In this document: in pieces, positions 21,591-35,950 of the stretch
Layout of the letters: every line of letters begins with the position of its first letter
Position numbering within the stretch: the first letter of the stretch is position 1
Source: an uncultured Myxococcales bacterium
Lineage (GTDB): Bacteria; Myxococcota; UBA4151
Length of the DNA: 43,743 nucleotides
Reading direction: 5' to 3'
Assembly: GCA_964013405.1 (NCBI GenBank)
Contig: CAXGWI010000014.1
Span: forward strand, 1 to 43,743
Program-made: the position numbers and the translations under genes
The notes under the pieces: generated by a model
What the model was told of the DNA's origin: nothing
What the model saw: the letters and a program-made list of their open reading frames with translations, nothing else
The model's database searches: none

Positions 21591-24500
21591 CTACGGCGCT
21601 GACACCGCATAGAAGACGTCATTGTCCGGCGTGTCGGAATCGTCACTCTGCTGCCACAGCACGTGGGCCGCGCCCGAAGCATCAAGGGCGATACTCGGGT
21701 AACGACTGTTCGCAGTCGTGTTATCCTCATCCACTGTCGGCTCACTCAGCACAACGTAGCCCTGGGCGAGCGGCGAATCATCCCGATCATAGCGACGCAG
21801 AATCACATCATAATCGTTACCCGAACTCTGCAGGGAGGCCTTCGACTGGAAGCCGACCACAACGACATGTTCGCCCATCGGGCGATCTGCCACCGCATGG
21901 ACCTTGATAGAGGGGCCGCCGTTCCTGCTGACTTCTTCCTCCATGAAGATCGCTTCATCATTGACCGTCACCGGCGTCGTGAACTGCGGCGCCTGACCTT
22001 CATGCCACGAGAACCGAACAGAGGTGCCACCCACGTCTTGGGCTGCCGCATCCGCACAATCACCCCGGGCTCGGAAAGCAATGTAAGCCCGGTTATTGAG
22101 GTCTTCCATATCGACAGCGATGGATGGTTCCGAGGCCCCGCCGGAGCAGTTTCCGTTGGCAACACGAATCCCCTCCTCGCCGATGACCCGGTAAAGCACG
22201 TCGTCATCATCCACGAGGTCGCCGTCAACATCACCGTTGTCGACCCATGCCACGTGACGACGGTCATCCTTGTCGATGGCGATCACAGCATGCTTCGCAC
22301 CGAAGTCGAGATCTGTGGTTGGCAGATCGCGAGCTGAAATCATGACCGAAGCCCAGCCATCCTGAGCTCGAGCCGAGTAGAACGTTTCGTACTCTCGGGG
22401 CGGATCGAAAGGACCTCCACCAAAGACGACTGCTGGGCCACTCTCACCCACGGCGATGCGGGGGTCCTCCATATCGAAGTCACCCACATCTTCACCGACT
22501 GAAACGACCTCAACAACGCTCAAGCCTTCGGCTCCAGCGGTACCATCCCAGGTCCGATACACAATGTCGCGGCTACCGTCGCGCATTGCGCCGGACCAAA
22601 CAGGAGCCCCACCGGCTCCTTCACGACCGGTACCCGCATCTGACCAAACGATGTGGGCAACGCCATCCGCATCAACAGCCACATCGGGCTGAATAGAAAG
22701 CGCTGTACGCAATCCGTCGATGGCGCCATCAGGTGCGCTTCCCGTCAGGTAGGTGATCACGACGGGTTCACCCCAAGAGCCGTCTTCGCCAACAGTGGCT
22801 GCGTAAACACGCGTGTCAGAGCAGGCATCTGCTCCATCGCAGTGCTGCCAAACCGCATACATGTGACCGTTCGGGCCGATCGCCACCCTCGGGTCAACCG
22901 AGTTGAGACTCGCCTCTTCCGGCGTCAACTGCACGGAAGCACCCGTCTTTGAGAGGTTGATCGTTGTGCGTGACTCGTTGCCGACATTATCCGTAGCGAC
23001 AACCCAAAGCACGAAGTGGTCCCCCTCGTCAGGAATCGTGACCGTTCCGCCGTAGATATCAGATTCACCTTCAACCTGAAGTTCTGGGAAGGGCACACCT
23101 TCGGCTTCGCCCACACCGCCCGTCACCGAGGCGACACCGTTAAAGTTGTCGACAACCTGAACGCGCACGTCGACCTCGCCGGGATCAACCCAAGCGTTGG
23201 GGCGAGGCGAAATAAAGGTGACATCCGGCCCCGCTGAATCAACGTTGAGAAGGCGGGACCGGCCACGGCTGGCTTCGTCTTCGTTCATCGCACTGCTGTT
23301 TCGAGCGCGGTCGATCACGGTGACGTAGAGCTGATTCTGCCCCTCGCCGAGGTCGCAGGCGACGCAATAGCTACCGTCATCCTGAGCCATGCCTTCGCAG
23401 GTACCAATCGGCTCGCCATCAGCGTCGGTATTGGAGATCTGAACCTGAGCGCCGGGCTCCGTTTCACCGCAAACCTGGACCGTCCCACTGTTCGTATTAC
23501 TCCCTTCAATGGTCTCACCGTTTTCATCCTTCACCGTAATCTCGCCAACGGCCGGAGGGGTGAAGTCGAAGACAACCTTCGCAAACTGGTGGGTCGATTC
23601 ACGACCATTGTCGAGACGAGCCCAAACTTCGAGCAGATGTTCGCCCTCGTTTGGGGTATCGACATCCGTCCACGCTCGCTCGACCGAATGACTCCAACTC
23701 ACCTCAGCGCTGGGCTCCTTGATCTGAACCTCATCACCACCGTCCTGCTTCAGGACCACGGCGGAGCCCTCACAGGAGCGACCCTCAAGTGCGTAGGCTC
23801 CCTTTTTAATGACAGGGTCGCCTTCCTCGAGGGTCTTTGAGGTCCAGGCGCAGAAGCCTGGGCGCTCCTCGCCGTTCACTTCGATCAGACAGCCGTTGAC
23901 CTCCGAGAACTCAGCGCCCTCAACAGCCTCGTGTTCCGCGAAACGCATCGTGCAACCGCTCGTGTCGTAATCCACTTGGATGGTCGTCGGTGCGGACTGA
24001 ACTGCGTCCGTCTGCCACGAGAAGAACTCAAAGGTGTTCACGTTGGTGAACCCATCATCGGTCTCAGACAAGGTGATGTCCTCAATGGACCAGTCCGTCC
24101 CCGGCCCCGGCGGCACAACCGTCTCGTCACGCTGAACCACGCCATCGACGGTGATCACCATCCGAATGCCGCTGCCCTCTGGACGAGTCCCGGCCCAGTC
24201 GATGGTTTCCTCCGCATGAATCAACAGGCTACTGTTATCAGGATCAATGCATTCGCCATCAACAAAGCCGCCAACGCAGGCATTCACCACCGGCGCATCG
24301 GGTCGCCGTACCAGTTGAATCGTCGCAATCACCTTCGTACTGCGCTTGCCGCCGTTGTCCACCGCTTCGATCTCAAACTTGTTCTCGCCCTCGACCAACT
24401 CCATTTCGAAGCTGAAGTCAGTGCGCTCGTTCAAGACGACCACTTCGGAACCGTTCGCATGAATGCCTGTACTCGACTGCTTGATGCCAGAGAGTTGAAT

Positions 24501-24671
24501 CTTATCGGAACAACCGTCCTCGATGCACTTCAGCAGGCTTGTTTCGAAGGGGTCCAGAACCGGTGGGTCCGGTCGGTCACCCTCGGTGACTCCACCTCCT
24601 CCACACTCACACCCGCTCGCGGCCGCGAAAAAAGCTACAAATAGAAAAACGGAGCGCTGACGATACGTCAT
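21591..24671 (-). CDS. Large acidic lipoprotein with tandem Ig-like domains and a C-terminal beta-propeller; start may lie up to 24722
   Basis: Lipobox ASGC. Ig-like motifs 'LVEGENKFEIEAVDNGG', 'GETEPGAQV', 'ATDNVGN'. Propeller blades 'P.(V/I)A.D..G..H(I/V).W' recur several times. Confidence 0.82.
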   Translation of the reverse strand: MTYRQRSVFLFVAFFAAASGCECGGGGVTEGDRPDPPVLDPFETSLLKCIEDGCSDKIQLSGIKQSSTGIHANGSEVVVLNERTDFSFEMELVEGENKFEIEAVDNGGKRSTKVIATIQLVRRPDAPVVNACVGGFVDGECIDPDNSSLLIHAEETIDWAGTRPEGSGIRMVITVDGVVQRDETVVPPGPGTDWSIEDITLSETDDGFTNVNTFEFFSWQTDAVQSAPTTIQVDYDTSGCTMRFAEHEAVEGAEFSEVNGCLIEVNGEERPGFCAWTSKTLEEGDPVIKKGAYALEGRSCEGSAVVLKQDGGDEVQIKEPSAEVSWSHSVERAWTDVDTPNEGEHLLEVWARLDNGRESTHQFAKVVFDFTPPAVGEITVKDENGETIEGSNTNSGTVQVCGETEPGAQVQISNTDADGEPIGTCEGMAQDDGSYCVACDLGEGQNQLYVTVIDRARNSSAMNEDEASRGRSRLLNVDSAGPDVTFISPRPNAWVDPGEVDVRVQVVDNFNGVASVTGGVGEAEGVPFPELQVEGESDIYGGTVTIPDEGDHFVLWVVATDNVGNESRTTINLSKTGASVQLTPEEASLNSVDPRVAIGPNGHMYAVWQHCDGADACSDTRVYAATVGEDGSWGEPVVITYLTGSAPDGAIDGLRTALSIQPDVAVDADGVAHIVWSDAGTGREGAGGAPVWSGAMRDGSRDIVYRTWDGTAGAEGLSVVEVVSVGEDVGDFDMEDPRIAVGESGPAVVFGGGPFDPPREYETFYSARAQDGWASVMISARDLPTTDLDFGAKHAVIAIDKDDRRHVAWVDNGDVDGDLVDDDDVLYRVIGEEGIRVANGNCSGGASEPSIAVDMEDLNNRAYIAFRARGDCADAAAQDVGGTSVRFSWHEGQAPQFTTPVTVNDEAIFMEEEVSRNGGPSIKVHAVADRPMGEHVVVVGFQSKASLQSSGNDYDVILRRYDRDDSPLAQGYVVLSEPTVDEDNTTANSRYPSIALDASGAAHVLWQQSDDSDTPDNDVFYAVSAP

Positions 24672-24804
24672 GGGCAAAAGCCTCCAGTCACGTTGGCGGG
24701 ATTGTTTCATGCTCGCGAGCATCTGGCAACCCAGCCCGGTTTAAATCAGCAGCCTTCACATCATACCATCGGTTGGTTTATCCAGTACTTGGGGAACCGA
24801 GCCG

Positions 24805-26691
24805 ATGGCGAAAGACTACTACCTCGCAATTAACGGTCAAGCGGACGGTCCGTTTAGCGAGGCAGAGCTCCGGCGAAGGCTAGCTGATGGCACCTTAAGC
24901 CCGGACACTTTAGCAGCACAGGACGGGGCTGCCACTTGGGAACCCGTCGAAGGCCTCGTGGGCAACCCTGCAACCGAGCCAAAGTCCGTCCGCACGCTCA
25001 GGGCGGTGCGGGATCGGCTGCAGGGCAAGGGCCCAGCCGAACGTCTTGGACTCACTGGAGACCCGCCCGAATCTCTCGTCCGAGAACACCTCCAACGACT
25101 TCAGAAACAACTCCAGAAGCAAATGGCGGAAGCCGAAGGGCCTGTCGCCCAAGGGCTCGCTGATGAAATCGAAGCCCTGCTTGAAGACGCGGCCATCGCA
25201 CTGACCAACCCCCTCGAGCGTTTTATTAGAAGTCGGGCCCAGAGCCTCGGTGTGGATCCGACATCGGAGAGCAACCGAGGCTATATCGTCAATCTCTATT
25301 ACCAAGAAGAGGGCAGCCGTGCGCTGGCCGCAGAACAGTGGGCGAAAGCGGCTGAGTTCTTTGGCAAACTTCTCGAAACCCAGCCGGACAATGTTGATGG
25401 GCAGTGGCAGCATGCCCTGGCTCTTTATCAAGCGAATCCGCTCAAGACGCAGGAGTCCCTGGCCACCCTGCGAAAAGTCGTCGCCGAATATCCCCAGCGT
25501 GTGGAGCCCCTCAGCGCACTCGTGGACCTCCTGATCAGCCTCGGTCGACGAGATGAGGCGCTCAGTCTCCTGAAGACGGCCATGGAGAACAGTGACAAAA
25601 AGGCGAAAATTAAAGCGATCTTCGACCGAGTTAGGGCTTCCGGTGGGTCTGCTGATTCACCACGAGGGCGGGCAGGAACGGCACCTAAACCGACCTCCCG
25701 CAAGTCCACACAGTCAAAAGGGAAGCGCAACACAAAACCTGGCACCTCGAGAGCAGACAGCCTGATCGCCGCAGCATCCGAAGGATCAGGCGAAAAGACC
25801 CATGATGGCATGGCCTTCGTCAAGGTCGCGCTGGTCTGCGCCGCCCTCTTCGGTTGGCTATGGCACGCGTCTACCGCCACTCCGAACCGCTGTTTCCCGG
25901 CCGGCGAGCAGGAGTACTTTTACGATCCTGGAAACTATTATCAGTACGCGGTGCCCGGCGGTGAAAGCACCGGTCAATGCCTGCCGTCGATGAAGCCACG
26001 GCCAGGAAAGAGCTTTTTCAATAACCTAGAGGCGGAACTAGACTGCCGAGGAAAGAACGCTGGCTTAGGCGCCGCAGAACTGCAGCAGCGCTGTGCGCGA
26101 ATTCCCTACCCGGATGCCAGTTCGAGCGTGGGCTCGGCGCAAAACTTCTTTTATGTTCGGCGCTTAGCGCTCCTCTTCATCGGTCTCCTCCTGATCGTTT
26201 TTCTTGGCTCCGGAGAGGGATTTGGTGCCCGCCTGCAGAATGTGGGCTTTGGACTCGACCCCGCCGGGATGGCCGCCGCTGTCTTCTTTGGCCTGGTGCT
26301 AGGCCTGATGGCGCCAACACAGTTCGTCCTCAATGCATCCCTCGGCGGCCTCCTTGGCCTCACCCTTTTGCATGTTCTTTCCGAAGAGGTGTTCTTCCGT
26401 GGCTTCGTCACCCGAAAACTGATGGATCAGTTTGATGCCCCCATGGTGGTGATCGTTGTCTCCGGTCTCATCTTTGGGATCTACCACCTCACCTTTGCTT
26501 CCTTTTACTGGATGGATCCGGGGCGCCTCCCCATGGCCGTTGGGATGCTGACGGTCGGTGCAGGCATCCCCTACGCTTGGCTCTATGTTAAGTCCGAGAG
26601 CATCTTCCCGCCGCTGACATGTCACCTGCTCGTCAACGGCCTCATGATGTGGTCTTCTCACGGGAACGTTCAAGGGCTCCTGGCCGGTTAG
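24805..26691 (+). CDS. Fusion of GYF_2 domain, J-domain-like segment, TPR and CPBP (Abi/CAAX-type) intramembrane protease
   Basis: N-terminus 'YYLAINGQADGPFS..L..GTLSPDTL..W'; TPR helices; multiple TMs with EEVFFRG, FGIYH and HLLVN motifs. Confidence 0.85.
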   Translation: MAKDYYLAINGQADGPFSEAELRRRLADGTLSPDTLAAQDGAATWEPVEGLVGNPATEPKSVRTLRAVRDRLQGKGPAERLGLTGDPPESLVREHLQRLQKQLQKQMAEAEGPVAQGLADEIEALLEDAAIALTNPLERFIRSRAQSLGVDPTSESNRGYIVNLYYQEEGSRALAAEQWAKAAEFFGKLLETQPDNVDGQWQHALALYQANPLKTQESLATLRKVVAEYPQRVEPLSALVDLLISLGRRDEALSLLKTAMENSDKKAKIKAIFDRVRASGGSADSPRGRAGTAPKPTSRKSTQSKGKRNTKPGTSRADSLIAAASEGSGEKTHDGMAFVKVALVCAALFGWLWHASTATPNRCFPAGEQEYFYDPGNYYQYAVPGGESTGQCLPSMKPRPGKSFFNNLEAELDCRGKNAGLGAAELQQRCARIPYPDASSSVGSAQNFFYVRRLALLFIGLLLIVFLGSGEGFGARLQNVGFGLDPAGMAAAVFFGLVLGLMAPTQFVLNASLGGLLGLTLLHVLSEEVFFRGFVTRKLMDQFDAPMVVIVVSGLIFGIYHLTFASFYWMDPGRLPMAVGMLTVGAGIPYAWLYVKSESIFPPLTCHLLVNGLMMWSSHGNVQGLLAG

Positions 26692-26737: not shown

Positions 26738-26812
26738 GGGTCGATAGCTCAGCGGTAGAGCGTCGCCTTTACACGGCGAGGGTCGCAGGTTCGATCCCTG
26801 CTCGACCCACCA
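26738..26812 (+). tRNA. tRNA-Val(TAC)
   Basis: Cloverleaf: acceptor GGGTCGA/TCGACCC, anticodon arm TCGCC-TTTACAC-GGCGA, GGTTCGATCCC T-arm, encoded CCA. Confidence 0.97.
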
Positions 26813-27598
26813 TCAGGTGTCCTGGATCTCCATTTCGCTCGCTAGCGGTTCCGGCTCAAGCCGGCGAACGATTTGGAGCAGGACGTAAATCAAGATGCCG
26901 AAGCAGACGAAAGCCGGGAGGTCATGGATCCAGCCCTCCCAGGGGCCGCGCCCTAAAGCCCAGCCTGTCCACATGCTGATCGCAACCCGCACACCATTGA
27001 TCAACACGGCGATCAAAGGGGCACAGACCACGAGAATGATCGCCGGCCGCTGGCGAAAACGGTCCACAGCGACGAGCAACATGGCCGAAATGAGTGCGAG
27101 CATACTCTCAACCTGGGCAAGACCAGCGCACTTGTCGTTGATCATAAACGGCTCTAGACCACCGTGTTTGGGAGCATCAGCGGTCCAAGGCACGGGCAAC
27201 CAGGTCCCCGTTGAGTCGTAAGGCACACAAAGGGACAATGCACCGCCAAGGAGTGCGGTCACGCGCCGTAAAGGCCAAGCGAGGGGTTCCGCAAGCCAAG
27301 GATCGAGCGGAAGCGTTAGAGCAGCCAAAATGAAGATGGGCCAACGGGGCAGCAACCGGTAACCAAGCCAGGCCAAGGCTAAACTTGGGCCGATGACCGG
27401 AACCAGGCTAAGCCCTACGGTCAAGAGGACCGTGAGCAGAAGGTGACCAGACGCTCGTCGACCTTTAAGTAGGACGATTCCCACAAGCGCCAGGGTCACG
27501 GCGACCCGGAACAGGTGTTGATCGTCGAGGACGTCCGAGCCCCTCGTCCAGGCAGCATAAACGCCCAGAAGGACGAGGGTCGCCCGAGATACGCTCAG
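26813..27598 (-). CDS. Exosortase/archaeosortase-family transpeptidase; start proposed at CTG 27598 (ORF track uses GTG 27499)
   Basis: Multi-TM protein with 'LAWPLRRVTA', catalytic Cys in 'INDKCAGL', Arg in 'LINGVRV' and His in 'WIHDL'. Confidence 0.88.
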   Translation of the reverse strand: MSVSRATLVLLGVYAAWTRGSDVLDDQHLFRVAVTLALVGIVLLKGRRASGHLLLTVLLTVGLSLVPVIGPSLALAWLGYRLLPRWPIFILAALTLPLDPWLAEPLAWPLRRVTALLGGALSLCVPYDSTGTWLPVPWTADAPKHGGLEPFMINDKCAGLAQVESMLALISAMLLVAVDRFRQRPAIILVVCAPLIAVLINGVRVAISMWTGWALGRGPWEGWIHDLPAFVCFGILIYVLLQIVRRLEPEPLASEMEIQDT

Positions 27599-27759
27599 CG
27601 CTTACGCGCGGCCCACCACGTGGCTGCGCCCATCGTAAGCAATGCCAGCGCTGAAGGCTCAGCACCGCCACCACCGCCGCCGCCGCCGCCACCGCCTGCA
27701 TACGCAGCGGAGGCAGCCAAGAAGACCGCAAGTCCGAGAATTAGCTTCGTTGAATTCAT
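27595..27759 (-). CDS. 54-aa PEP-CTERM-like exosortase substrate (signal peptide, Gly11, AEP sorting signal)
   Basis: MNSTKLILGLAVFLAASAAYA-GGGGGGGGGGG-AEPSALALLTMGAATWWAARKR; AGGGAG SD before ATG 27759; directly upstream of the exosortase. Confidence 0.85.
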   Translation of the reverse strand: MNSTKLILGLAVFLAASAAYAGGGGGGGGGGGAEPSALALLTMGAATWWAARKR

Positions 27760-27796
27760 GATGTGCTCCCTGTCGGAGTGTTCCGGACTAGTGCTC

Positions 27797-27811
27797 GCAA
27801 GTCGCGTGCCA
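27797..27811 (-). promoter_or_regulatory. Sigma54 promoter of the exosortase cassette
   Basis: Minus strand TGGCACGCGACTTGC matches the consensus TGGCACG-N4-TTGC exactly. Confidence 0.85.
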
Positions 27812-27937
27812 GCCATATATCACCCCAATATCACCCAACCTAACACCGGCTTAAACGTTACCTTGAAGTGGAATTCGGGCAAAAATTACAAAGTTTTAGG
27901 TCCTGCCCGATTTCGGCGCCGCCCCTGACGGTTTTGG

Positions 27938-30310
27938 TCAGGCGTCCGGCGTCAGCCGACCGCCGAGAAAGCCATCGGGGGCTAAAGGTTCAAGTTCGAG
28001 ATCAGGCAGATCAAGAGCGACCTGAAGAACCTCGTCGACCCAGGCAACGGCCGTCACACTCAGCTCTTTAAGGACCTCAGCCGGCACGTCATCTAAATCC
28101 GGCAGGTTCTCTCGGGGAATCAGCACTCGGTCGAAGCCAAAGCGGTGGGCGGCCAGGAGCTTCTCTCGAAGCCCCCCGATGCGTAACACTCGTCCCCTCA
28201 GCGTCACCTCGCCGGTCATGGCCAGGCCTCCAACAACAGGCCGATCCAACAAGGCACTCACAATCGCTGTCACCAGCGTAATCCCGGCACTGGGACCATC
28301 CTTTGGGGTTGCCCCTTCGGGCGCATGCACATGCACATCCACCCGCTGGTACCAGTCTCGATCAAGCCCGAGGGCACCGGCCCGGGACCGTATAAAGGTG
28401 AGTGCCGTGCGGGCCGACTCCTGCATCACGTCTCCCAGGCGTCCCGTGGTCTCTACGCGAGCGGTCCCAGGGACAACACTGGCCTCAATATGCAGAACAG
28501 AGCCGCCGGTCGACGACCAGGCCAGCCCGCAGGCCAGGCCTGGCCGGTCCCCGCCACTGTGGTCCGGCTCAGCAAAGTGCTCCGTCCCCAAAAGGGCGCT
28601 GACATGTCGCGGAGCGAGCCGACGACGGGCTCCCGTCCTCACCTGGGCGGCAGGCTCTTGCTCCAGCAACTGCCGAGTGACCTTCCTCATGCAGGCCCCG
28701 ATCTGGCGCTCCAGCGACCGCACGCCAGCTTCCCGGGTGTAGCGCCGAATCAAATGCAGCATGGCCGGCTTAGAAAAGTTCACCTGATCCGGGCGCAGAC
28801 CCGCTCCTTCGGCCTGACGGGGAACCAAGTGATTGCGTGCGATCGCCAGCTTTTCGACTTCTGTGTAACCAGACAACTCGATGATTTCGAGTCGGTCTCT
28901 AAGGGCTGGTGGCACATTGGCGAGGGAATTGGCCGTACACAGAAAAAGGATCTGGGAGAGGTCTAAGTCCAGTTCGAGATAGTTATCGACGAACTCACGG
29001 TTTTGCTCCGGATCTAGGACCTCAAGGAGCGCCGCGGCTGGATCACCGCGTAAGTCGGCCGTCAACTTATCCACTTCATCCAAAAGCATCACGGCATCGA
29101 GGGCACCAGCCCGCTTCACCGCCTGGGCAATGCGACCAGGCATCGCCCCCACGTAAGTCCGACGATGACCTCGGATCTGGGCTTCGTCGTGAACCCCGCC
29201 CAACGCCACACGCACGAAGGGACGAGCCGTTGCCCGAGCAACACTGCGGGCAAGAGAGGTCTTGCCCACACCAGGAGGTCCGACCAGGCAGAGGATGGGA
29301 CCAGGGGCGTCAGGCACCTGACTCCGAACCGCGAGGTGCTCTAAAATCCGCTCCTTAGGATCATCGAGACCACAATGGTCTTCGTCGAGGCACTGCCTCG
29401 CCTCGGCCAAACTCGGCGAGCCATCCGTAAAATGCCCCCAAGGGATTTCGGCGATGACCTCAAGCCAGTTCCGTAAAACATTCGCCTCCGCACTCATGGC
29501 GTGCATCTTTGCCAAGCGCCCAAGGGCCGTTTCAGTGCGTGCCCGAGCCTCTTCGGTCAAATCTAAACTCGCGATCCGTGCTCTCAACTCGTCCAACTCG
29601 GGATCGGTGGGCTCGGCTTTTTCAACCTGGCCCTTGCGGGGCTTACGGCGGGCCCGCCGGCGAACCCCTTGCGCCATCCGCTCTTGGTTTCGCTGCTCCG
29701 CAAGTTCCAGTTCAAGACTGCGAAGAATCGCCTGAGCCCGATGGCGAACGTCGAGCTCTTCGAGAAGTTCTTGGCGACTCAAAAGATCGAGATCAAGACA
29801 ACCACATAGCTTGTCGACGAGGACACCCAGGTCGACCGCCCCAAGGAGGTCGATTCGATCGATCGCTTCGCTACGGTAACGAGCCAACTCATTCACACGG
29901 CCCAGAAGGTTCCGCCTCAGTTCTTCTGCAACCTCACCCTGCAGACCTCGCTCCTTGACCTCCTCGACGGTCGCGGTGAACGCGCCGTTGCGGCCCTCTT
30001 GAACACCACGAAGTCGGATCCTCGTCAGCCCTTCGACGCAGACACGAACCACTCGGCGATCTCCCCCTGGGAGTTGCTCCTGTGGCTCGACCAGTCGGGC
30101 CAAAACACCCACGGGGAAGAGATCCCCCTCAACCGGTTGCTCAACACGCCGGTCAACTTGGGCTGCAAGGACAATGGCCCGACTCGGGTCCGCCAGGGCC
30201 AGCCGAAGCGATGCGAGAGACCCCCGTCTTCCAACTCGAAGATGGGCTCGCATATGGGGGAAGATCACGAACTCCCGTAAAGGCAGGAGTGGATAGACGA
30301 CCTCCGTCAT
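27938..30310 (-). CDS. lon: ATP-dependent protease La (LonA)
   Basis: Lon N-domain, Walker [24 protein letters not shown] (catalytic Ser) and GGLREK. Confidence 0.97.
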
Positions 30311-31551
30311 GCAGCCTCTTCCGGCTCAACCCGTACCACTTCGGGCTTGGCTTCACCGGTGACCGACGCGGGCGTGACCTCAAGCCGAGCGACCGTCCGG
30401 TCACCACAGAGCTTGTACATCGGATGGATCAGAATATCCTCTAGGATAGCTCGCAAGCCTCTCGCTCCGGTCTTTCGCTCCAAAGCCAGTTGGGCGATCG
30501 CGGACAACGAATCGTCACCCAAGGCCAGTTCAATACCGTCCATCTCAAACAAAGCGACGTATTGTTTAATAAGCGCATTCTTCGGCTCGGTGAGGATTTG
30601 AACCAGGGCATCCTCGTCGAGAGGGTGAAGGGCCGAAATCACCGGCAAACGACCGACAAACTCGGGAATCAAACCATAGTTCAACAGATCCTCTTGGTTG
30701 GTTTGGACCAACAGTTCAGGACCCGGTTCGACCCGCTCTCCCGACTCACCAAAACCAATTCGATTGCCCCCAAGGCGAGTGGCGATGGTCCGCTCCATTC
30801 CGGAGAAAGCACCTCCACAAATAAACAGGACCTGCGAGGTGTCGACCTTATGGACATCGCCGTGGGGATGCTTCCGCCCCCCTTTGGTGGGGACGTGGGC
30901 GACGGTCCCCTCAATGATTTTCAGAAGGGCCTGTTGGACGCCCTCGCCGCTCACATCTCGGGTGATCGACGGGTTCTCGCTGCGCCGGCTCACTTTGTCG
31001 ATTTCGTCGATGTAGACGATGCCCCGTTCGGCTCGAGCGATGTCGCCGTCTGCGGCATGCACAAGGGCACCGATGATGTTCTCAACGTCATCGCCCACGT
31101 AGCCGGCCTCCGTCAGCGAGGTGGCGTCAGCAATGGCGAAGGGGACGTTGAGAAACCGAGCCAATGTCCGAGCCAAATGGGTCTTACCCGTACCAGTCGG
31201 CCCGATCAGGAGGATATTGCTCTTTTCGAGTTCAACCTCGTCGCCATCCTCCTCATCGAGGATGCGAAGGCGCTGATAATGATTGTGCACTGCCACAGCC
31301 AAAACCTTCTTCGCCCGGTCTTGGCCGATCACATATTGATCCAAAGCCTCTTTGATTTCTGAGGGCGTGGGCAAATGATCGCTATGATCCTCACCCTCGG
31401 TACTTCCCGATGGGGTTGGCTCATCCAGAAGTTCTGCGCAAAGAAGAACGCAGGAATCGCAGATCTGATCGCTCGGTCCTGCGATCAGATGCTGAACTTG
31501 GTTCTGCGGCTTTTTGCAGAACGAGCAGTTTTTCATTCGCTTACTGCTCAA
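30307..31551 (-). CDS. clpX: ClpX ATPase subunit
   Basis: C4 zinc finger [26 protein letters not shown] and IGF loops, TGARGLR. Confidence 0.98.
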
Positions 31552-32150
31552 TTTTCCTCCTGGGGGCCCTGTCCAAAGTGGATCTGGTCGATCAAGCCAT
31601 ACGCCAGGGCCTCGTCCGCGGACATATAGTAATCCCGATCGGAGTCCTCATGCACTTTGTCGACGGGTTTCCCGGTCGCGTCGGCCAGGATTTGGGCCAA
31701 CAGGTCCTTGGCCTTTTGGATCTCTTGGGCCTGAATCTGGATATCCGATGCCTGCCCCCTGGCCCCACCAAGGGGTTGGTGAATCATCACCCGAGCGTGA
31801 GGGAGGCTATAGCGTTTCCCCTTGGCGCCCGCTGCCAAAAGCACGGCGCCCATGGATGCGGCCTTGCCAACACAGATCGTCGCAACATCGGGCCGAATGT
31901 AATTCATCGTATCGAGGATGGCCAAGCCATCATCGATGACGCCCCCCGGGCTGTTGATGTAGAGATGGATGTCCTGCTCGGGATCCTGGCTGTCGAGAAA
32001 CAACAACTGGGCGACGATCGAATTCGCAACCAAGTCGTTAATCGCACCACCTAGGAAGATGATTCGGTCTTTGAGGAGCCGGCTCCAAATATCGTAGCTG
32101 CGCTCGCCGCGATGGTCCTGCTCGATGACAACGGGGGTCAAAAGGCCCAT
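31548..32150 (-). CDS. clpP: ClpP protease subunit
   Basis: [31 protein letters not shown] and MIHQP motifs. Confidence 0.98.
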
Positions 32151-32153
32151 GGA

Positions 32154-33491
32154 TCAACTCTCCTCTTCTTCACTGCCGGCTTCCACCGGTTCGTCCTGTG
32201 TTTCCTCGACCGGCGCCTCCGGCGCTAGACTGTTCTCTGCACCGTCCACAACGAAGGCCAACGCCTTTCGATTCCGCAGTTCAGCAACGATACCAGCCAT
32301 GGCATCGGCACTTTTGAACTTCTGCTGCACTGCTGCCAGCGGCTGGCCCAGCTCCCGGCTCATGCGAACGAGTTCCTGAGCCAAATCCTGAGGCGCTGGT
32401 TCCAGTTCCTCTGCCTCAGCGATCTCCTCCAAAAGAAGGCCAGCCTGTACGGCTCGCACTGCTCCTGGACGGGCTTCTTCACGCAGCTTCTCAAGATCGA
32501 GACCGATCTCATCATAACGCTCCGGCGGAATGCCCTGAAGGGCTTGCCGGACCATGCGGTCAAGGTGGGAATTCACCAAACCGGGAGGCACCTCAATGGG
32601 ATTGTGCTCGATGAGTTGATCGAGGACTTTCTCCTCCATCTCGGTCTGATAACCCTGCTCGAAGCGATACTCCAACGACGCCCTGACCTGCTCCTTTAAG
32701 GTGGCGAAGTCGTCGAAGCCAATGCCCTTGGCCAACTCGTCGTCGAGCGCGGGAAGTTCGCCCGCTTCGATCAACTCGACTTCAAAGGTGTGGGCAACGG
32801 CTTGGCCCTGCAGCTTCTCGTTGGGGTTATCCTCGCTAAACGTAATGCTGGCCTCGAAGGGCTCACCGACCTTTTTGCCGATAAGAGCCGCCTTAATGTC
32901 CGGTTCCAAGCTCACGTCGTCCAAGGTGAAGGTTTGAACCTGGTCCTCGGCCAAGACCTCGTCACCCAACTTTGCGGTAAACTTAACCCGCACACGATGC
33001 TCATCGGCGATCTCAACGCCAGACTCAGCTTCTGACCATTCCGTTCGAGATCGCTGTAGGCGCTCGAGTTCTGCGTCGAGATCATCATCGGTACAGATCT
33101 TCTTTTCGACCGCGACCTGAAGCCCGCTCACCTGTTTCAGATCAATGTCCGGCCGAACCTCGAGATTGATCGTAAAGCGAAAGGGCTGTCCTTCTTCCAC
33201 ATGGGGGTGCCCCTCCACCTTGGGCGGGGTCACCGGCCGGAGCCCCTCATCGTCGACAGCCTTACGAAAAGCCTTCTCGATGATCTGCTCGCTGACTTGG
33301 TGAATCACGAGGCCCCGGGCTTCCTTCATAATCCGTCGAACAGGCACTTTGCCTGGGCGAAAGCCCGGCAGGCGCTTGCGCGACGCATAGAGTTGATAGG
33401 CCCTGTTCAAGTCCCGTTCACAGTCGCCCGGGCTAATCTCGAACTGAAGACGGACTTGCACTCCGTCCAGTTTCTCCACTTCAACTTGCAT
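32154..33491 (-). CDS. tig: Trigger factor
   Basis: True start ATG 33491 (MQVEVEK) after AGGAGG; ribosome-binding motif PGFRPGKVP; tig-clpP-clpX-lon order. Confidence 0.95.
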   Translation of the reverse strand: MQVEVEKLDGVQVRLQFEISPGDCERDLNRAYQLYASRKRLPGFRPGKVPVRRIMKEARGLVIHQVSEQIIEKAFRKAVDDEGLRPVTPPKVEGHPHVEEGQPFRFTINLEVRPDIDLKQVSGLQVAVEKKICTDDDLDAELERLQRSRTEWSEAESGVEIADEHRVRVKFTAKLGDEVLAEDQVQTFTLDDVSLEPDIKAALIGKKVGEPFEASITFSEDNPNEKLQGQAVAHTFEVELIEAGELPALDDELAKGIGFDDFATLKEQVRASLEYRFEQGYQTEMEEKVLDQLIEHNPIEVPPGLVNSHLDRMVRQALQGIPPERYDEIGLDLEKLREEARPGAVRAVQAGLLLEEIAEAEELEPAPQDLAQELVRMSRELGQPLAAVQQKFKSADAMAGIVAELRNRKALAFVVDGAENSLAPEAPVEETQDEPVEAGSEEEES

Positions 33492-33502
33492 TGATTCCTC
33501 CT

Positions 33503-33587
33503 TGGTACGAGCGGGGGGAATCGAACCCCCACGGGCAAGCCCACTGGAACCTAAATCCAGCGCGTCTACCAGTTCCGCCACGCTCGT
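33503..33587 (-). tRNA. tRNA-Leu(TAG)
   Basis: Acceptor ACGAGCG/CGCTCGT, D-arm GGCGGAACTGGTAGACGC, anticodon arm CTGGA-TTTAGGT-TCCAG, variable arm, GGTTCGATTCC, CCA end. Confidence 0.96.
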
Positions 33588-33646: not shown

Positions 33647-34561
33647 CTAGAGTCGTTGTACAAAATGGGCGCAGATGTCGGGCCCTCCCCCTGCGAGAAC
33701 CTCCTCGACCCCAGTGGGACTCGTCACGTTGATCTCGGTGAGGAAGCCATCGATGATATCAAGGCCAACAAAGCGCAGGCCCAGTTCCCGAAAACTCTCG
33801 GCCACAGCGCTACAGATCCGTAGATCATCGCCATTGAGCGGTACGAAACTCGCCCTGGCCCCCACATGCATGTTGGCCCGATGTTCGTCGTCGGCTGGCA
33901 GGCGGTTCAGAACAGCGAGCGGCTCCCCATCGACCAACAGGACCCGCCGGTCCCCTTCGCGCACCTTATCGAGGTACTTCTGAGCCATGACTTGGCGACG
34001 GCCTTCCTCGGTGGCTGTCTCCAACAAGGCAGAGAGATTACGGTCATCGTCCGCTGCGACAAAAATCCCGCGGCCGCCGTTACCATCTAAAGGCTTGAGA
34101 ACAATGGTTCCCTCAGCCCGGATCATCGCCTTCAACTCATCGATTCGATTGGTCACTCGAGTCGGTGGAATCAGCGTTGGATAGCGTAAGATCAACGTTT
34201 TCTCGTTCGCCCAAGTCAAAGTGCTCGGCCGATTCCAAACTGAAAGCCCGGTCTTTTCTGCGGCATCGAGCAACCAAAGGCCGGCCAGATACTCCCGTCC
34301 AACCGGGGGGTCGGTGCGAACAAAGGCTGCCTGGAAATGCGCCGCTGCATCCACCCATTGCCCCGGAAGCACCTCATGGTTGCCGTCAAACTTCCGAGCA
34401 AAGACAAAGAGCCGGTCGTGGCGCCAGATCAAATCCTCCATCAAACACCAATGGCTTTCATAGCCGGCCTCCCGACTCGCCCGGGCCATCGCCAGGGTGG
34501 TGTCGACGCCAGGGCGAAGACTTGAAAGATGATCGCAAACGTAGAGATGTGCAGGTTTCAT
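33647..34561 (-). CDS. gshB: Glutathione synthetase
   Basis: DTT, RTDPP, NEK, KPLDGNGGRG, EGDRR, RANMHVG and TEINVTSPTG motifs. Confidence 0.95.
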   Translation of the reverse strand: MKPAHLYVCDHLSSLRPGVDTTLAMARASREAGYESHWCLMEDLIWRHDRLFVFARKFDGNHEVLPGQWVDAAAHFQAAFVRTDPPVGREYLAGLWLLDAAEKTGLSVWNRPSTLTWANEKTLILRYPTLIPPTRVTNRIDELKAMIRAEGTIVLKPLDGNGGRGIFVAADDDRNLSALLETATEEGRRQVMAQKYLDKVREGDRRVLLVDGEPLAVLNRLPADDEHRANMHVGARASFVPLNGDDLRICSAVAESFRELGLRFVGLDIIDGFLTEINVTSPTGVEEVLAGGGPDICAHFVQRL

Positions 34562-34606
34562 TGGCTTCTAGTTGCCGCGAGACCATGGGCTGAGTAAAGC
34601 GCCGCC

Positions 34607-35950
34607 ATGAAGAGCACCCATGACCTCCCATTGGAACTCATCGCGGCCCACCGCGACGGTGCCACACAGCGAGCGGACTGGCTGACCGGCGCAGAGCACG
34701 AATTGCTCGCCGTCGATGCCGATGGGCGGGCCCCAAAATTCGACGGTGACCAGGGTATTGAGCGGGTCCTCCTAGGCATTGGATCGGAGGTCGCTGGCCT
34801 CGATGGCATGGAGGAACGAGGGCGGATCATCGCGCTCAAAGGACGAGGGGGGAGTGTCACGCTGGAGCCGGGAGGCCAGGTCGAACTCTCTGGTGCTGCC
34901 CACAAGGATCTGCACGCGCTGGCCTCGGAAACCCAATGCTATCAGTCCGCACTCGAGCGGGTCGCTGAGGACCTAGGCTTACGCTTTTTCGCCATGGGAC
35001 TGCGGCCCGTGCTTCCCGTTCCCGATGTACCACGCATGCCCAAAGCTCGTTATCGAGTGATGGAAGACGTGATGCCCTCCCTTGGTTCTCGTAGCCTTGA
35101 GATGATGTTCTCGACGGCCACCATCCAGTGCAATCTAGATTACAGCGATGAAGCCGATATGGTGGCCAAGTTTCGATGCGGCGCCCTGCTCTCACCGGTT
35201 TTGACGGCCCTCGTCGCCAACTCGCCCTACCAGGCTGGCCAACGCACCGGGCTGATGAGCACGAGGCAGGCGATCTGGGATGAGACGGCGACGGCCCGCA
35301 GTGGTCGCTTCCCCTGGATGGTCGAGGGGCCCATCAGCTACCGGGACTATGCAACCTTCGCCAGCGACCAACCCCTCTTGTTCCGGCAACAAGGAGATCA
35401 ACTCTCAGAGGCCGACCAGCAATCGTTCCTTAGCCACTTCAAAAAGGGTGAGCTAGACCTCGAAGACTGGGCGCTTCACCTCACGACCCTCTTCCCGGAG
35501 GTGCGCCTTAAGCACATGCTGGAGTTGCGGGGAGCCGATGGCGGTACAGGCGATCTCGTCATCGCCGTCAATGCCTTTTGGACCGGTATTCTCTATGACG
35601 ATGAGGCCCGTAACGAGGCCATTGCGCAACTGACCTCACTGGATGGGACCACCTGGGACCAGCTGGCCAAGGCCTGTCAAAAAGATGGGCTTCGTGCGCA
35701 AACACAAGGCCTCCCCCCAGTCGCAGAGATTGCAGCTGCAGCCGTCGGTTGGGCGAAAGATGGTCTCAAGCGTCGCGCCCGCTGCAACGAAGCCGGTGAA
35801 GACGAAAGCATCTGGTTACGTCCATTGGAGCAGTTCCTTGAACTCGGGGCCTCCCCGGCGGAGTTACTCATTGCGAGATTTGGCGATGATGCATTGGCTG
35901 CTCGATCCTTCCTCGCGGGCGATGTCCAGCGGTCACCATGGCTCGCTTGA
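34607..35950 (+). CDS. gshA: Glutamate--cysteine ligase (GCS2 family, plant/alphaproteobacterial type)
   Basis: GAEHE, TLEPGGQVELSGA, MPKARY, QCNLDYSDEADM, ANSP, HLTTLFPEVRLK and LELRGADGG motifs. Confidence 0.93.
   Translation: MKSTHDLPLELIAAHRDGATQRADWLTGAEHELLAVDADGRAPKFDGDQGIERVLLGIGSEVAGLDGMEERGRIIALKGRGGSVTLEPGGQVELSGAAHKDLHALASETQCYQSALERVAEDLGLRFFAMGLRPVLPVPDVPRMPKARYRVMEDVMPSLGSRSLEMMFSTATIQCNLDYSDEADMVAKFRCGALLSPVLTALVANSPYQAGQRTGLMSTRQAIWDETATARSGRFPWMVEGPISYRDYATFASDQPLLFRQQGDQLSEADQQSFLSHFKKGELDLEDWALHLTTLFPEVRLKHMLELRGADGGTGDLVIAVNAFWTGILYDDEARNEAIAQLTSLDGTTWDQLAKACQKDGLRAQTQGLPPVAEIAAAAVGWAKDGLKRRARCNEAGEDESIWLRPLEQFLELGASPAELLIARFGDDALAARSFLAGDVQRSPWLA

Follow-up and report, generated by a model that had tools for sequence, protein, structure and literature searches.

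A dedicated exosortase and its polyglycine mini-substrate in an uncultured myxobacterium: a possible lipopeptide module involving an Lnt-like acyltransferase

Analysis of a 43,743-nucleotide stretch of contig CAXGWI010000014.1 from an uncultured Myxococcales bacterium (the window; host genome G000) identified a minus-strand cassette, between positions 26813 and 27811, in which the gene for a 54-residue precursor peptide lies directly ahead of an exosortase gene. The two are almost certainly a real translated pair. Together with a paralog of apolipoprotein N-acyltransferase (Lnt) encoded elsewhere in the genome, the dedicated exosortase and its single partner may form a module for producing a short lipopeptide in the membrane, a reading that we hold tentatively and at somewhat short of even confidence. 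The original prediction, drawn from the letters of the window, had singled out the exosortase and its polyglycine substrate and overlooked the wider module with the Lnt-like paralog.

A dedicated exosortase and its single partner

The precursor (positions 27595 to 27759, minus strand), recognized as a conserved open reading frame, comprises a 21-residue signal peptide ending in AYA, a Gly11-Ala segment, Glu-Pro, a hydrophobic helix, and a terminal RKR. The Gly11 run (27664 to 27696, minus strand) is written in mixed GGC and GGT codons, and its first Gly is the predicted mature N terminus, the cleavage site having been placed by the AxA rule and conservation and not by a signal-peptide predictor. 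The tail is PEP-CTERM-like, with AEP in place of Pro-Glu-Pro, and is a near miss in profile comparisons (15.5 bits against a cut-off of 16 for TIGR02595 and 16.8 against 20.7 for PF07589). All elements named in the original prediction, from the sigma54 site and the Shine-Dalgarno sequence through the 54-residue gene to the Cys/Arg/His exosortase, are present in the sequence. Its "exactly 11 Gly" holds in the window (27696-27664) but not as a family rule, the run being 11 or 12 in relatives and three family peptides reading G-(S/A)-D-N-G8. Between 12 and 13 residues precede EP in the family peptides, so that length is better kept than Gly purity. Three pairwise comparisons of codons 22 to 35 found 9, 7, and 9 synonymous and no nonsynonymous differences, and the signal-peptide region carries 9 to 17 nonsynonymous differences over the same comparisons; the peptide gene is under purifying selection at the protein level. 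A polyglycine run alone is unremarkable in G000, since runs of 10 to 16 Gly are common within its larger proteins (contigs C26, C182, C7, C13, and C41).

The exosortase (26813 to 27598, minus strand; assigned by hidden Markov models [HMMs] and alignment) has 261 residues when read from its likely CTG start, which overlaps the TGA of the peptide gene, and its frame is open from 27601 to 26813. It passes the exosortase/archaeosortase family models (TIGR04178, 39 bits with a cut-off of 23; PF09721, 50.9 bits with a cut-off of 25.7) and falls far under the cut-offs of the named Xrt subfamily HMMs, among them XrtA TIGR03109 (24.6 versus 208 bits) and EpsH TIGR02602 (30.1 versus 105.55), with no match to XrtE TIGR04162 (E ≤ 0.1) or XrtX. 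These scores support its placement in an unnamed subfamily outside the named ones. The catalytic-type residues located by alignment, C157 (27128-27130), R204 (26987-26989), and H225 (26924-26926; all minus strand), are unchanged in 9 of 9 aligned homologs. The motifs C157-A-G, N201-G-V-R204, and H225 carry the Cys-x-Gly, Asn-x-x-Arg, and His pattern that, on three consecutive membrane helices, defines the family (PMC1569441; the papers cited here were accessible in part, and statements attributed to them are limited to those parts). The Gly of His-x-x-x-Gly is Ala in the window enzyme and Gly in some homologs. An AlphaFold2 model (mean predicted local distance difference test score of 80) places the triad at or in helices 160-177, 193-215, and 222-246. 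A Foldseek search of this model against the PDB gave no match with E ≤ 0.001, a search of the ESM Atlas returned the exosortase family only, and a plasmid collection contained no match to the enzyme.

The window exosortase is the sole PF09721 match in the 94%-complete G000 genome. A scan of 64,093 frames for EP followed by a hydrophobic stretch and a basic end gave 6 matches, of which only the precursor is plausible, the verdict that it alone has a signal peptide and a proper tail being our own judgment. The proposed dedicated pairing of one enzyme with one substrate is supported, and the exosortase very probably processes the 54-residue peptide.

Close relatives of the exosortase are few (5 matches including itself in one search and 3 at E ≤ 1e-10 in another). 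It was found in 3 of the 5 other host-family genomes and had no match in 55 other genomes of the phylum. The cassette is present in 4 of the 5 host-family relatives, three recognized by exosortase match and G002 by the promoter and peptide start, its contig ending within the peptide gene (before the Gly run) downstream of the same promoter. The contig of G004 ends within the exosortase, and G005 is only 59% complete. The cassette also occurs in 2 further metagenomic lineages. Eight loci, representing five distinct sequences, have a signal-Gly11/12-AEP-helix-basic end directly ahead of the exosortase, and wherever the contigs reach, lon lies upstream and a convergent tRNA-Val gene downstream. 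The exosortase is 71 to 73% identical in the sister species, with the frame intact, residues 1 to 33 included. Two marine metatranscriptomes each yielded one short contig (27386-27549 with 1 difference and 27427-27628 with 4 differences), which could be DNA carry-over and were not counted as expression.

The first ATG, GTG, or TTG of the exosortase frame appears at residue 34 (27499) in the host genus, and the Pfam match begins at residue 10. A CGC-TGA junction is found at 8 of 8 loci (5 distinct sequences), across which the exosortase frame reads CTG over the peptide stop; CGC is the final codon in 32 of the 143 long G000 frames ending in Arg-TGA. The overlap takes a GTG-A form in G006. Translation probably starts at CTG 27598, a start that is likely and not certain because other lineages carry ATG or TTG at residue 10. 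Four-base overlaps mark termination-reinitiation (PMC6728339), CTG lying outside the discussion in the accessible part of that source. A programmed frameshift or read-through fusing peptide and enzyme was discarded as a general explanation because the relative frame differs between families (same frame in G075 and G121; -1 in the host family, G006, and G060) and no slippery site is evident.

An Lnt-like paralog accompanies the glycine start

An Lnt-like paralog gene (ACYLTRANSFERASE) was found in 14 of 401 phylum genomes, comprising 6 of 6 in the host family, G006, G057, G073, and 5 of 6 in family f24. Twelve of these 14 genomes also have an exosortase match (the two without are G002 and G005), compared with 98 of the 401 genomes of the phylum. 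The paralog adjoins the exosortase in 6 genomes of 4 families (G006, G057, G060, G073, G075, and G121) and is unlinked in 8. The paralog comes as an extra copy alongside canonical Lnt, whose gene in G000 is split over two contig ends. All 9 of the 9 sequences aligned keep its Glu-Lys-Cys triad, and the paralogs branch separately from canonical Lnt (Shimodaira-Hasegawa-like approximate likelihood ratio test [SH-aLRT], 83) in a quick tree of 13 rows that left out two canonical sequences. The plasmid collection gave generic lnt matches only.

Mini-peptides with a Gly start lie directly ahead of the exosortase in G006 (family f2) and in G060, G075, G095, G100, and G121 (f24). In G057 (f5), a single-strand cluster encodes a pilin, the peptide, a CPBP protease, an Ig-like protein, a small open reading frame, the Lnt-like protein, and the exosortase. 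In G073 (f17; L116:3970-4872, G073:C256), the signal, a Gly-rich segment, and a helix share one frame with the exosortase and are followed by the Lnt-like gene, which is possibly a self-processing precursor-protease fusion or else an assembly error. Each of the 11 complete peptides from paralog-bearing genomes (8 genera) has Gly as its first residue following an Ala, against 5 of the 15 XrtE-type cargoes in genomes lacking the paralog. These peptides are often not pure polyglycine, and in an alignment of 14 peptides the only invariant positions are A|G at the cleavage site (A21|G22; 14 of 14) and one inner Gly, in agreement with the earlier expectation that the N-terminal Gly matters. The exosortase, paralog, and peptide are all absent from G065 (f24, 92% complete), where the flanking genes stand about 370 nucleotides apart. 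In G045 (f23), which has an exosortase and no paralog, a Gly-rich mini-peptide begins with Leu after AWA. The f23 regions of G045 and G050 have no peptide adjoining the exosortase, and the G025 region encodes an unrelated exosortase. In the exosortase tree, the host family forms one clade (100/100) and f2, f17, f23, and f24 a second (95/88), with G057 apart.

A precedent is the Lnt homolog AatD, which attaches palmitate to the N terminus of Gly1 once signal peptidase I has cut (PMC7943197; PMC8689077); one Gly is enough for it, and further Gly raise the acylation label (PMC7943197). The AatD/CexE-Aap system resembles the present one in having a signal peptidase I site followed by Gly-Gly (AFA then GG in Aap; predicted here by the AxA rule) and an Lnt-family enzyme with a Glu-Lys-Cys triad besides canonical Lnt. 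It differs in that the window-type target is a 12- to 17-residue peptide with a C-terminal sorting tail and an exosortase, not a folded protein. None of the loci read showed AatPABC secretion genes, which were not searched for across whole genomes.

A peptide-profile scan of 226 genomes returned strong matches that were circular, being the profile's own source sequences, and five weak extra matches, none of them a mini-peptide of this type. Metagenomes also yielded mini-peptides that combine Gly at +1 with a canonical (V/I/A)PEP tail (P0019, P0020, P0062, and P0072; P0026 and P0073), one group having a conserved Cys in the mature part; P0019, P0020, and P0026 pass TIGR02595. A third Lnt-like match in G006 (C81:1097-2203) lies in a 1004-residue open frame and sits on a long branch. 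In G057 (contig C63; L102:11792-12593), the mini-peptide gene starts about 10 nucleotides past a type IV pilin-like gene, and in G000 a sigma54 site lies ahead of a PilA-like gene (C2:86497). The peptide may be coexpressed with the major pilin.

Proposed pathway

In the pathway that we propose, signal peptidase would expose Gly1 (Gly22 of the precursor) after export, and the Lnt-like acyltransferase (G000:C168:4781-6184) would add a fatty acid to it. A fatty acid is preferred to a peptide as the group on Gly1 because it is an Lnt-like N-acyltransferase gene that goes along with the Gly start; acylation of Gly1 by the paralog appears slightly favored. The exosortase would remove the C-terminal helix near AEP by means of Cys157, and the new C terminus may be joined to phosphatidylethanolamine by analogy with archaeosortase and rhombosortase, an analogy that tips the balance modestly toward a C-terminal lipid. 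The product would be a flexible peptide of about 13 residues, possibly with a lipid at each end, its Gly run serving as an acyltransferase recognition site and a spacer of fixed length. In the host family, an activator-dependent sigma54 promoter would supply the peptide in excess, and reinitiation at the CTG within the peptide stop would yield only small amounts of exosortase. The product may act as an envelope tether, a surface coat, or a signal. The scheme in full is possible but doubtful: a ribosomal lipopeptide pathway that our searches did not encounter elsewhere, that spans five or more Myxococcota families (one genome having a fused precursor-protease), and in which the Lnt paralog acylates Gly1, the exosortase moves the C terminus to a phospholipid, and the doubly lipidated product is a tether within or between membranes.

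Archaeosortase A with PGF-CTERM and rhombosortase with GlyGly-CTERM serve as the model for tail removal and ethanolamine-lipid attachment: ArtA processing requires PssA and PssD (PMC7157517), and rhombosortase targets gain glycerophosphoethanolamine (bioRxiv 10.1101/2023.06.07.544157). Unlike the window system, both have large passengers, many targets, and no N-terminal acylation partner, and the fold of rhombosortase is unrelated. A literature search for the pairing of an exosortase with an apolipoprotein N-acyltransferase surfaced only archaeal papers, most subscription papers lying outside its reach.

Several observations weigh against this scheme. Its weakest point is the acyltransferase link, which is drawn from genomic context and is not a physical linkage in G000, where the paralog is on another contig (C168:4781-6184) amid housekeeping genes; nor is it beside the exosortase in the 6 host-family genomes, G095, and G100. 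The paralog search used one query at E ≤ 1e-12 with at most 4 candidates scored per genome, and other paralogs may escape it. The comparison with AatD is one of "works like," not of membership, because the paralog is no ortholog of AatD (hhalign E of 0.007, 16% identity; AatD falls outside the paralog branch). The loci (11 regions, then 6 more) were hand-picked after weak exosortase-profile matches had been seen, and the Gly-start counts depend on sites placed by the AxA rule in kin that are not independent. The C-terminal motif varies (AEP, APEP, or xVP), with no Pro in G060, G075, and G121. Family f23 retains an exosortase without the Lnt paralog, and its G045 mini-peptide (L125, G045:C39:14807-14992) stands alone by a flagellin-like gene, away from the exosortase; this Leu start and the G073 fusion rest on one assembly each. 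A single origin of the module exosortases is neither shown nor rejected (3 label changes; approximately unbiased test, p-AU 0.15).

Promoter and upstream elements

A sigma54 (-24/-12) promoter-like site, TGGCAC-N5-TTGC (27797 to 27811, minus strand), precedes the peptide gene, and the motif is seen in both genera of the host family. A strict match had a frequency of 0.00035 among 20,000 base shuffles of the 178-nucleotide intergenic region, and no sigma70 promoter was found. Conservation of the site in the host family supports the predicted sigma54 control, which is not novel, having already been described for PEP-CTERM genes (PMC1569441; PMC9850573). The Shine-Dalgarno site read from the sequence, AGGGAG (27766 to 27771, minus strand), is 6 nucleotides ahead of the ATG at 27759, and purine-rich sites like it are also present in homologs.

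Farther upstream, the palindrome TGAC-N7-GTCA (27926 to 27940, minus strand) is a candidate enhancer, a putative binding site for a bacterial enhancer-binding protein, and its first TGA doubles as the lon stop codon in the host genus. The palindrome sits 78 to 129 nucleotides upstream of the sigma54 box in the window, four further loci (L003, L004, L008, and L010), and G002, and the combination precedes the peptide in five distinct sequences of the host family. There are 91 such palindromes in the 3.9-Mb genome, where they accompany 1 of 38 sigma54-like sites; a search for a regulon found a perfect copy at 1 of 10 sigma54-like sites checked and a one-mismatch copy at one more. None of the 8 related peptide genes inspected in other families showed either the sigma54 site or the palindrome upstream. 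Assignment to a PrsR regulon was rejected, as none of 17 TIGR02915 matches exceeded the cut-off and the palindrome differs from the PrsR motif. G000 encodes nine candidate sigma54 activators. Looser sigma54-like sites on the minus strand of the window (21491, 19473, and 43461), none with the palindrome, lie upstream of genes for a 585-residue Cys-rich lipoprotein-like protein, a 2526-residue secreted protein, and a minor-pilin/PilY1 cluster, respectively.

Neighboring genes

The convergent tRNA-Val(TAC) gene (26738 to 26812, plus strand), assigned from sequence, is a conserved neighbor in the family and probably has no part in the mechanism; the exosortase stop abuts its CCA end (26812-26815) in the host genus and is a few bases from it in the sister genus. 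Beyond it lies a gene for a GYF_2-TPR-CPBP intramembrane protease (24805 to 26691, plus strand; Pfam GYF_2, TPR_19, and Rce1-like), a candidate accessory with homologs in 16 of 401 genomes. In 12 genomes (families f1, f5, f17, f23, and f24), with differing flanks, a CPBP homolog or a cut-off part of one lies no more than about 5 kb from the exosortase, a count that excludes G082, G087, and G111. The gene is unlinked to the exosortase in G006, and in G121 the contig is too short for a verdict. In the window the protease keeps an intact catalytic motif. A core role is doubted because several carriers have a degenerate motif and G065, which lacks the cassette, still has the gene. The protein is likely an accessory, perhaps clearing the cut-off helix, and may be a separately encoded version of the CPBP domain that XrtE carries as a fusion. 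Its identification as a myxosortase was rejected (NF040914 Mrt_core, 24.4 versus 100 bits); the true myxosortase is at G000:C1:107989 (113.9 bits), and MYXO-CTERM-like tails in G000 number 16 by pattern, 3 of them over the TIGR03901 cut-off.

An Ig-like repeat protein with a lipoprotein-like N terminus (21591 to 24722, minus strand) is a possible accessory with a weak link: a homolog belongs to the same-strand cluster of G057, and 3 of the 5 genomes checked have theirs on other contigs. Between the CPBP gene and the exosortase cassette, families f23 and f24 have a gene for a conserved protein of about 235 residues with 48 to 73% identity (L095:3613-4581, L096:1226-1942, L097:4703-5482, L098:6423-7127, L099:862-1575, and L119:10312-11055), and a tblastn search with it found no match in G000. 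A housekeeping tig-clpP-clpX-lon operon occupies 27938-33581 upstream of the cassette, and glutathione synthase and glutamate-cysteine ligase genes stand back to back at 33647-35950.

Alternative explanations

The pair could be an ordinary mini-substrate system like XrtE/VPEID or PID-CTERM, in which the peptide is anchored at its C terminus only, the Gly run is a neutral spacer, and the paralog serves other proteins; we judge this explanation unlikely but realistic. Dedicated one-to-one exosortase systems are a recognized class (bioRxiv 10.1101/2023.06.07.544157). At 15 of the 30 best-scoring exosortase loci of the phylum, an adjoining gene encodes a signal, a linker of 11 to 48 residues and varied composition, and a (V/A)PE(L/F)(D/N) motif. 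Because these loci and the metagenomic PEP mini-peptides have cargo without a passenger domain, such cargo is ordinary, and the lack of a passenger domain in the window peptide is not novel. In G000, Gly runs of up to 16 are common as linkers, 17 frames match a loose signal-plus-GG pattern (a few of them plausible secreted proteins), and throughout the host family the paralog is unlinked. Against a neutral spacer stand the Gly at +1 in 11 of 11 peptides versus 5 of 15, the run length held at 11 to 12 with synonymous-only change, the adjacency of the paralog in 6 genomes of 4 families, and the joint absence in G065.

The XrtE/VPEID-CTERM system (TIGR04162, TIGR04161) likewise has one exosortase directly behind one small signal-linker-tail gene and an associated CPBP domain. 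An example from the phylum, L016, the one enzyme of these loci that was scored, reaches 172.5 bits on TIGR04162 (cut-off 150) and has an 85-residue VPEFD cargo upstream; nine long enzymes of this type form one branch. The window enzyme differs in being short (261 residues) and unfused, with no TIGR04162 match and a separate position in the tree; its CPBP protein is a separate GYF/TPR-bearing gene product, its motif is AEP instead of VPE(I/L/F)D, its cargo starts with Gly, and an Lnt paralog co-occurs. The TIGR04161/VPEID motif is absent from the window peptide, the corresponding genome search having run without a positive control. PID-CTERM with exosortase X we take to be a system of the phylum Bacteroidota with a different motif, in which a tiny Gly/Pro-rich cargo lies beside a dedicated exosortase. 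Neither peptide nor enzyme matched NF046080 or XrtX, and the genome search for this system likewise ran without a positive control.

The processed (lipo)peptide, or a fragment freed by the exosortase and the CPBP protease, could instead be sensed as a signal that feeds back on the sigma54 activator, which we consider unlikely. The palindrome and sigma54 site shared by five distinct family sequences, at 1 of 38 sigma54-like sites in the genome, would suit such a circuit, as would the closeness of the CPBP protease to the exosortase in 12 genomes. Maturation of quorum-sensing peptides is a role of CPBP proteases (MroQ). Against feedback, none of the loci read has a linked kinase or activator gene, the promoter is absent at 8 of 8 loci of other families, a near-homopolymer carries little information, and the CPBP motif is degenerate in several carriers, with the gene persisting in G065 without the cassette. 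The PEP-CTERM/exosortase A system with PrsK-PrsR is similar in its motif-helix-basic tail, Cys/Arg/His enzyme, and sigma54 promoter with an upstream activator site. The window system differs in having one target, not many, with no passenger domain, and in its palindrome, TGAC-N7-GTCA, which is not the TTTACA-ending motif described in PMC1569441; no PrsR exceeds the cut-off. No polysaccharide genes are among the window annotations near the cassette.

The original prediction had also raised a sortase-type role, in which free oligoglycine would act as the nucleophile for the exosortase acyl-enzyme and give cyclic or polymeric Gly peptides or a lipid-anchored acceptor. This idea gains from the invariant Gly1 and from a Cys/Arg/His triad that is sortase-like in a family where transpeptidation is suspected (bioRxiv 10.1101/2023.06.07.544157), but we now find it improbable. 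Relatives start G-S-D-N, G-A-D-N, G-V-N, or G-L-R, with a single leading Gly and the run interrupted by Asp, Asn, Ser, Val, or Arg; the 64,093-frame scan found no other donor tail in the genome; the Gly start tracks an Lnt-like N-acyltransferase; and the known acceptors of related enzymes point to ethanolamine lipids (bioRxiv 10.1101/2023.06.07.544157; PMC7157517). That the locus is a relic, with a decaying exosortase lacking a canonical start (the first ATG, GTG, or TTG is only at residue 34 in the host genus) and a remnant peptide, is very improbable given the intact frame with 71 to 73% identity in the sister species including residues 1 to 33, the invariant triad, the CGC-TGA junction in 8 of 8 loci, and purifying selection on the peptide.

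Significance

The literature read (bioRxiv 10.1101/2023.06.07.544157) leaves open whether exosortases are one-step transpeptidases and what the attachment partner is in bacteria. With a 261-residue enzyme and one 33-residue mature substrate, the window pair is a minimal system in which the mass of the product would settle the matter directly. If the proposed lipopeptide pathway is not true, the pair represents an unnamed exosortase subfamily of a catalogued type. If the paralog does acylate Gly1, N-acylation of glycine would no longer be confined to enteric pathogens and their Aat system. A ribosomal precursor would then be turned into a lipopeptide by two membrane enzymes, which would be a new way to obtain lipopeptides from ribosomally made peptides.

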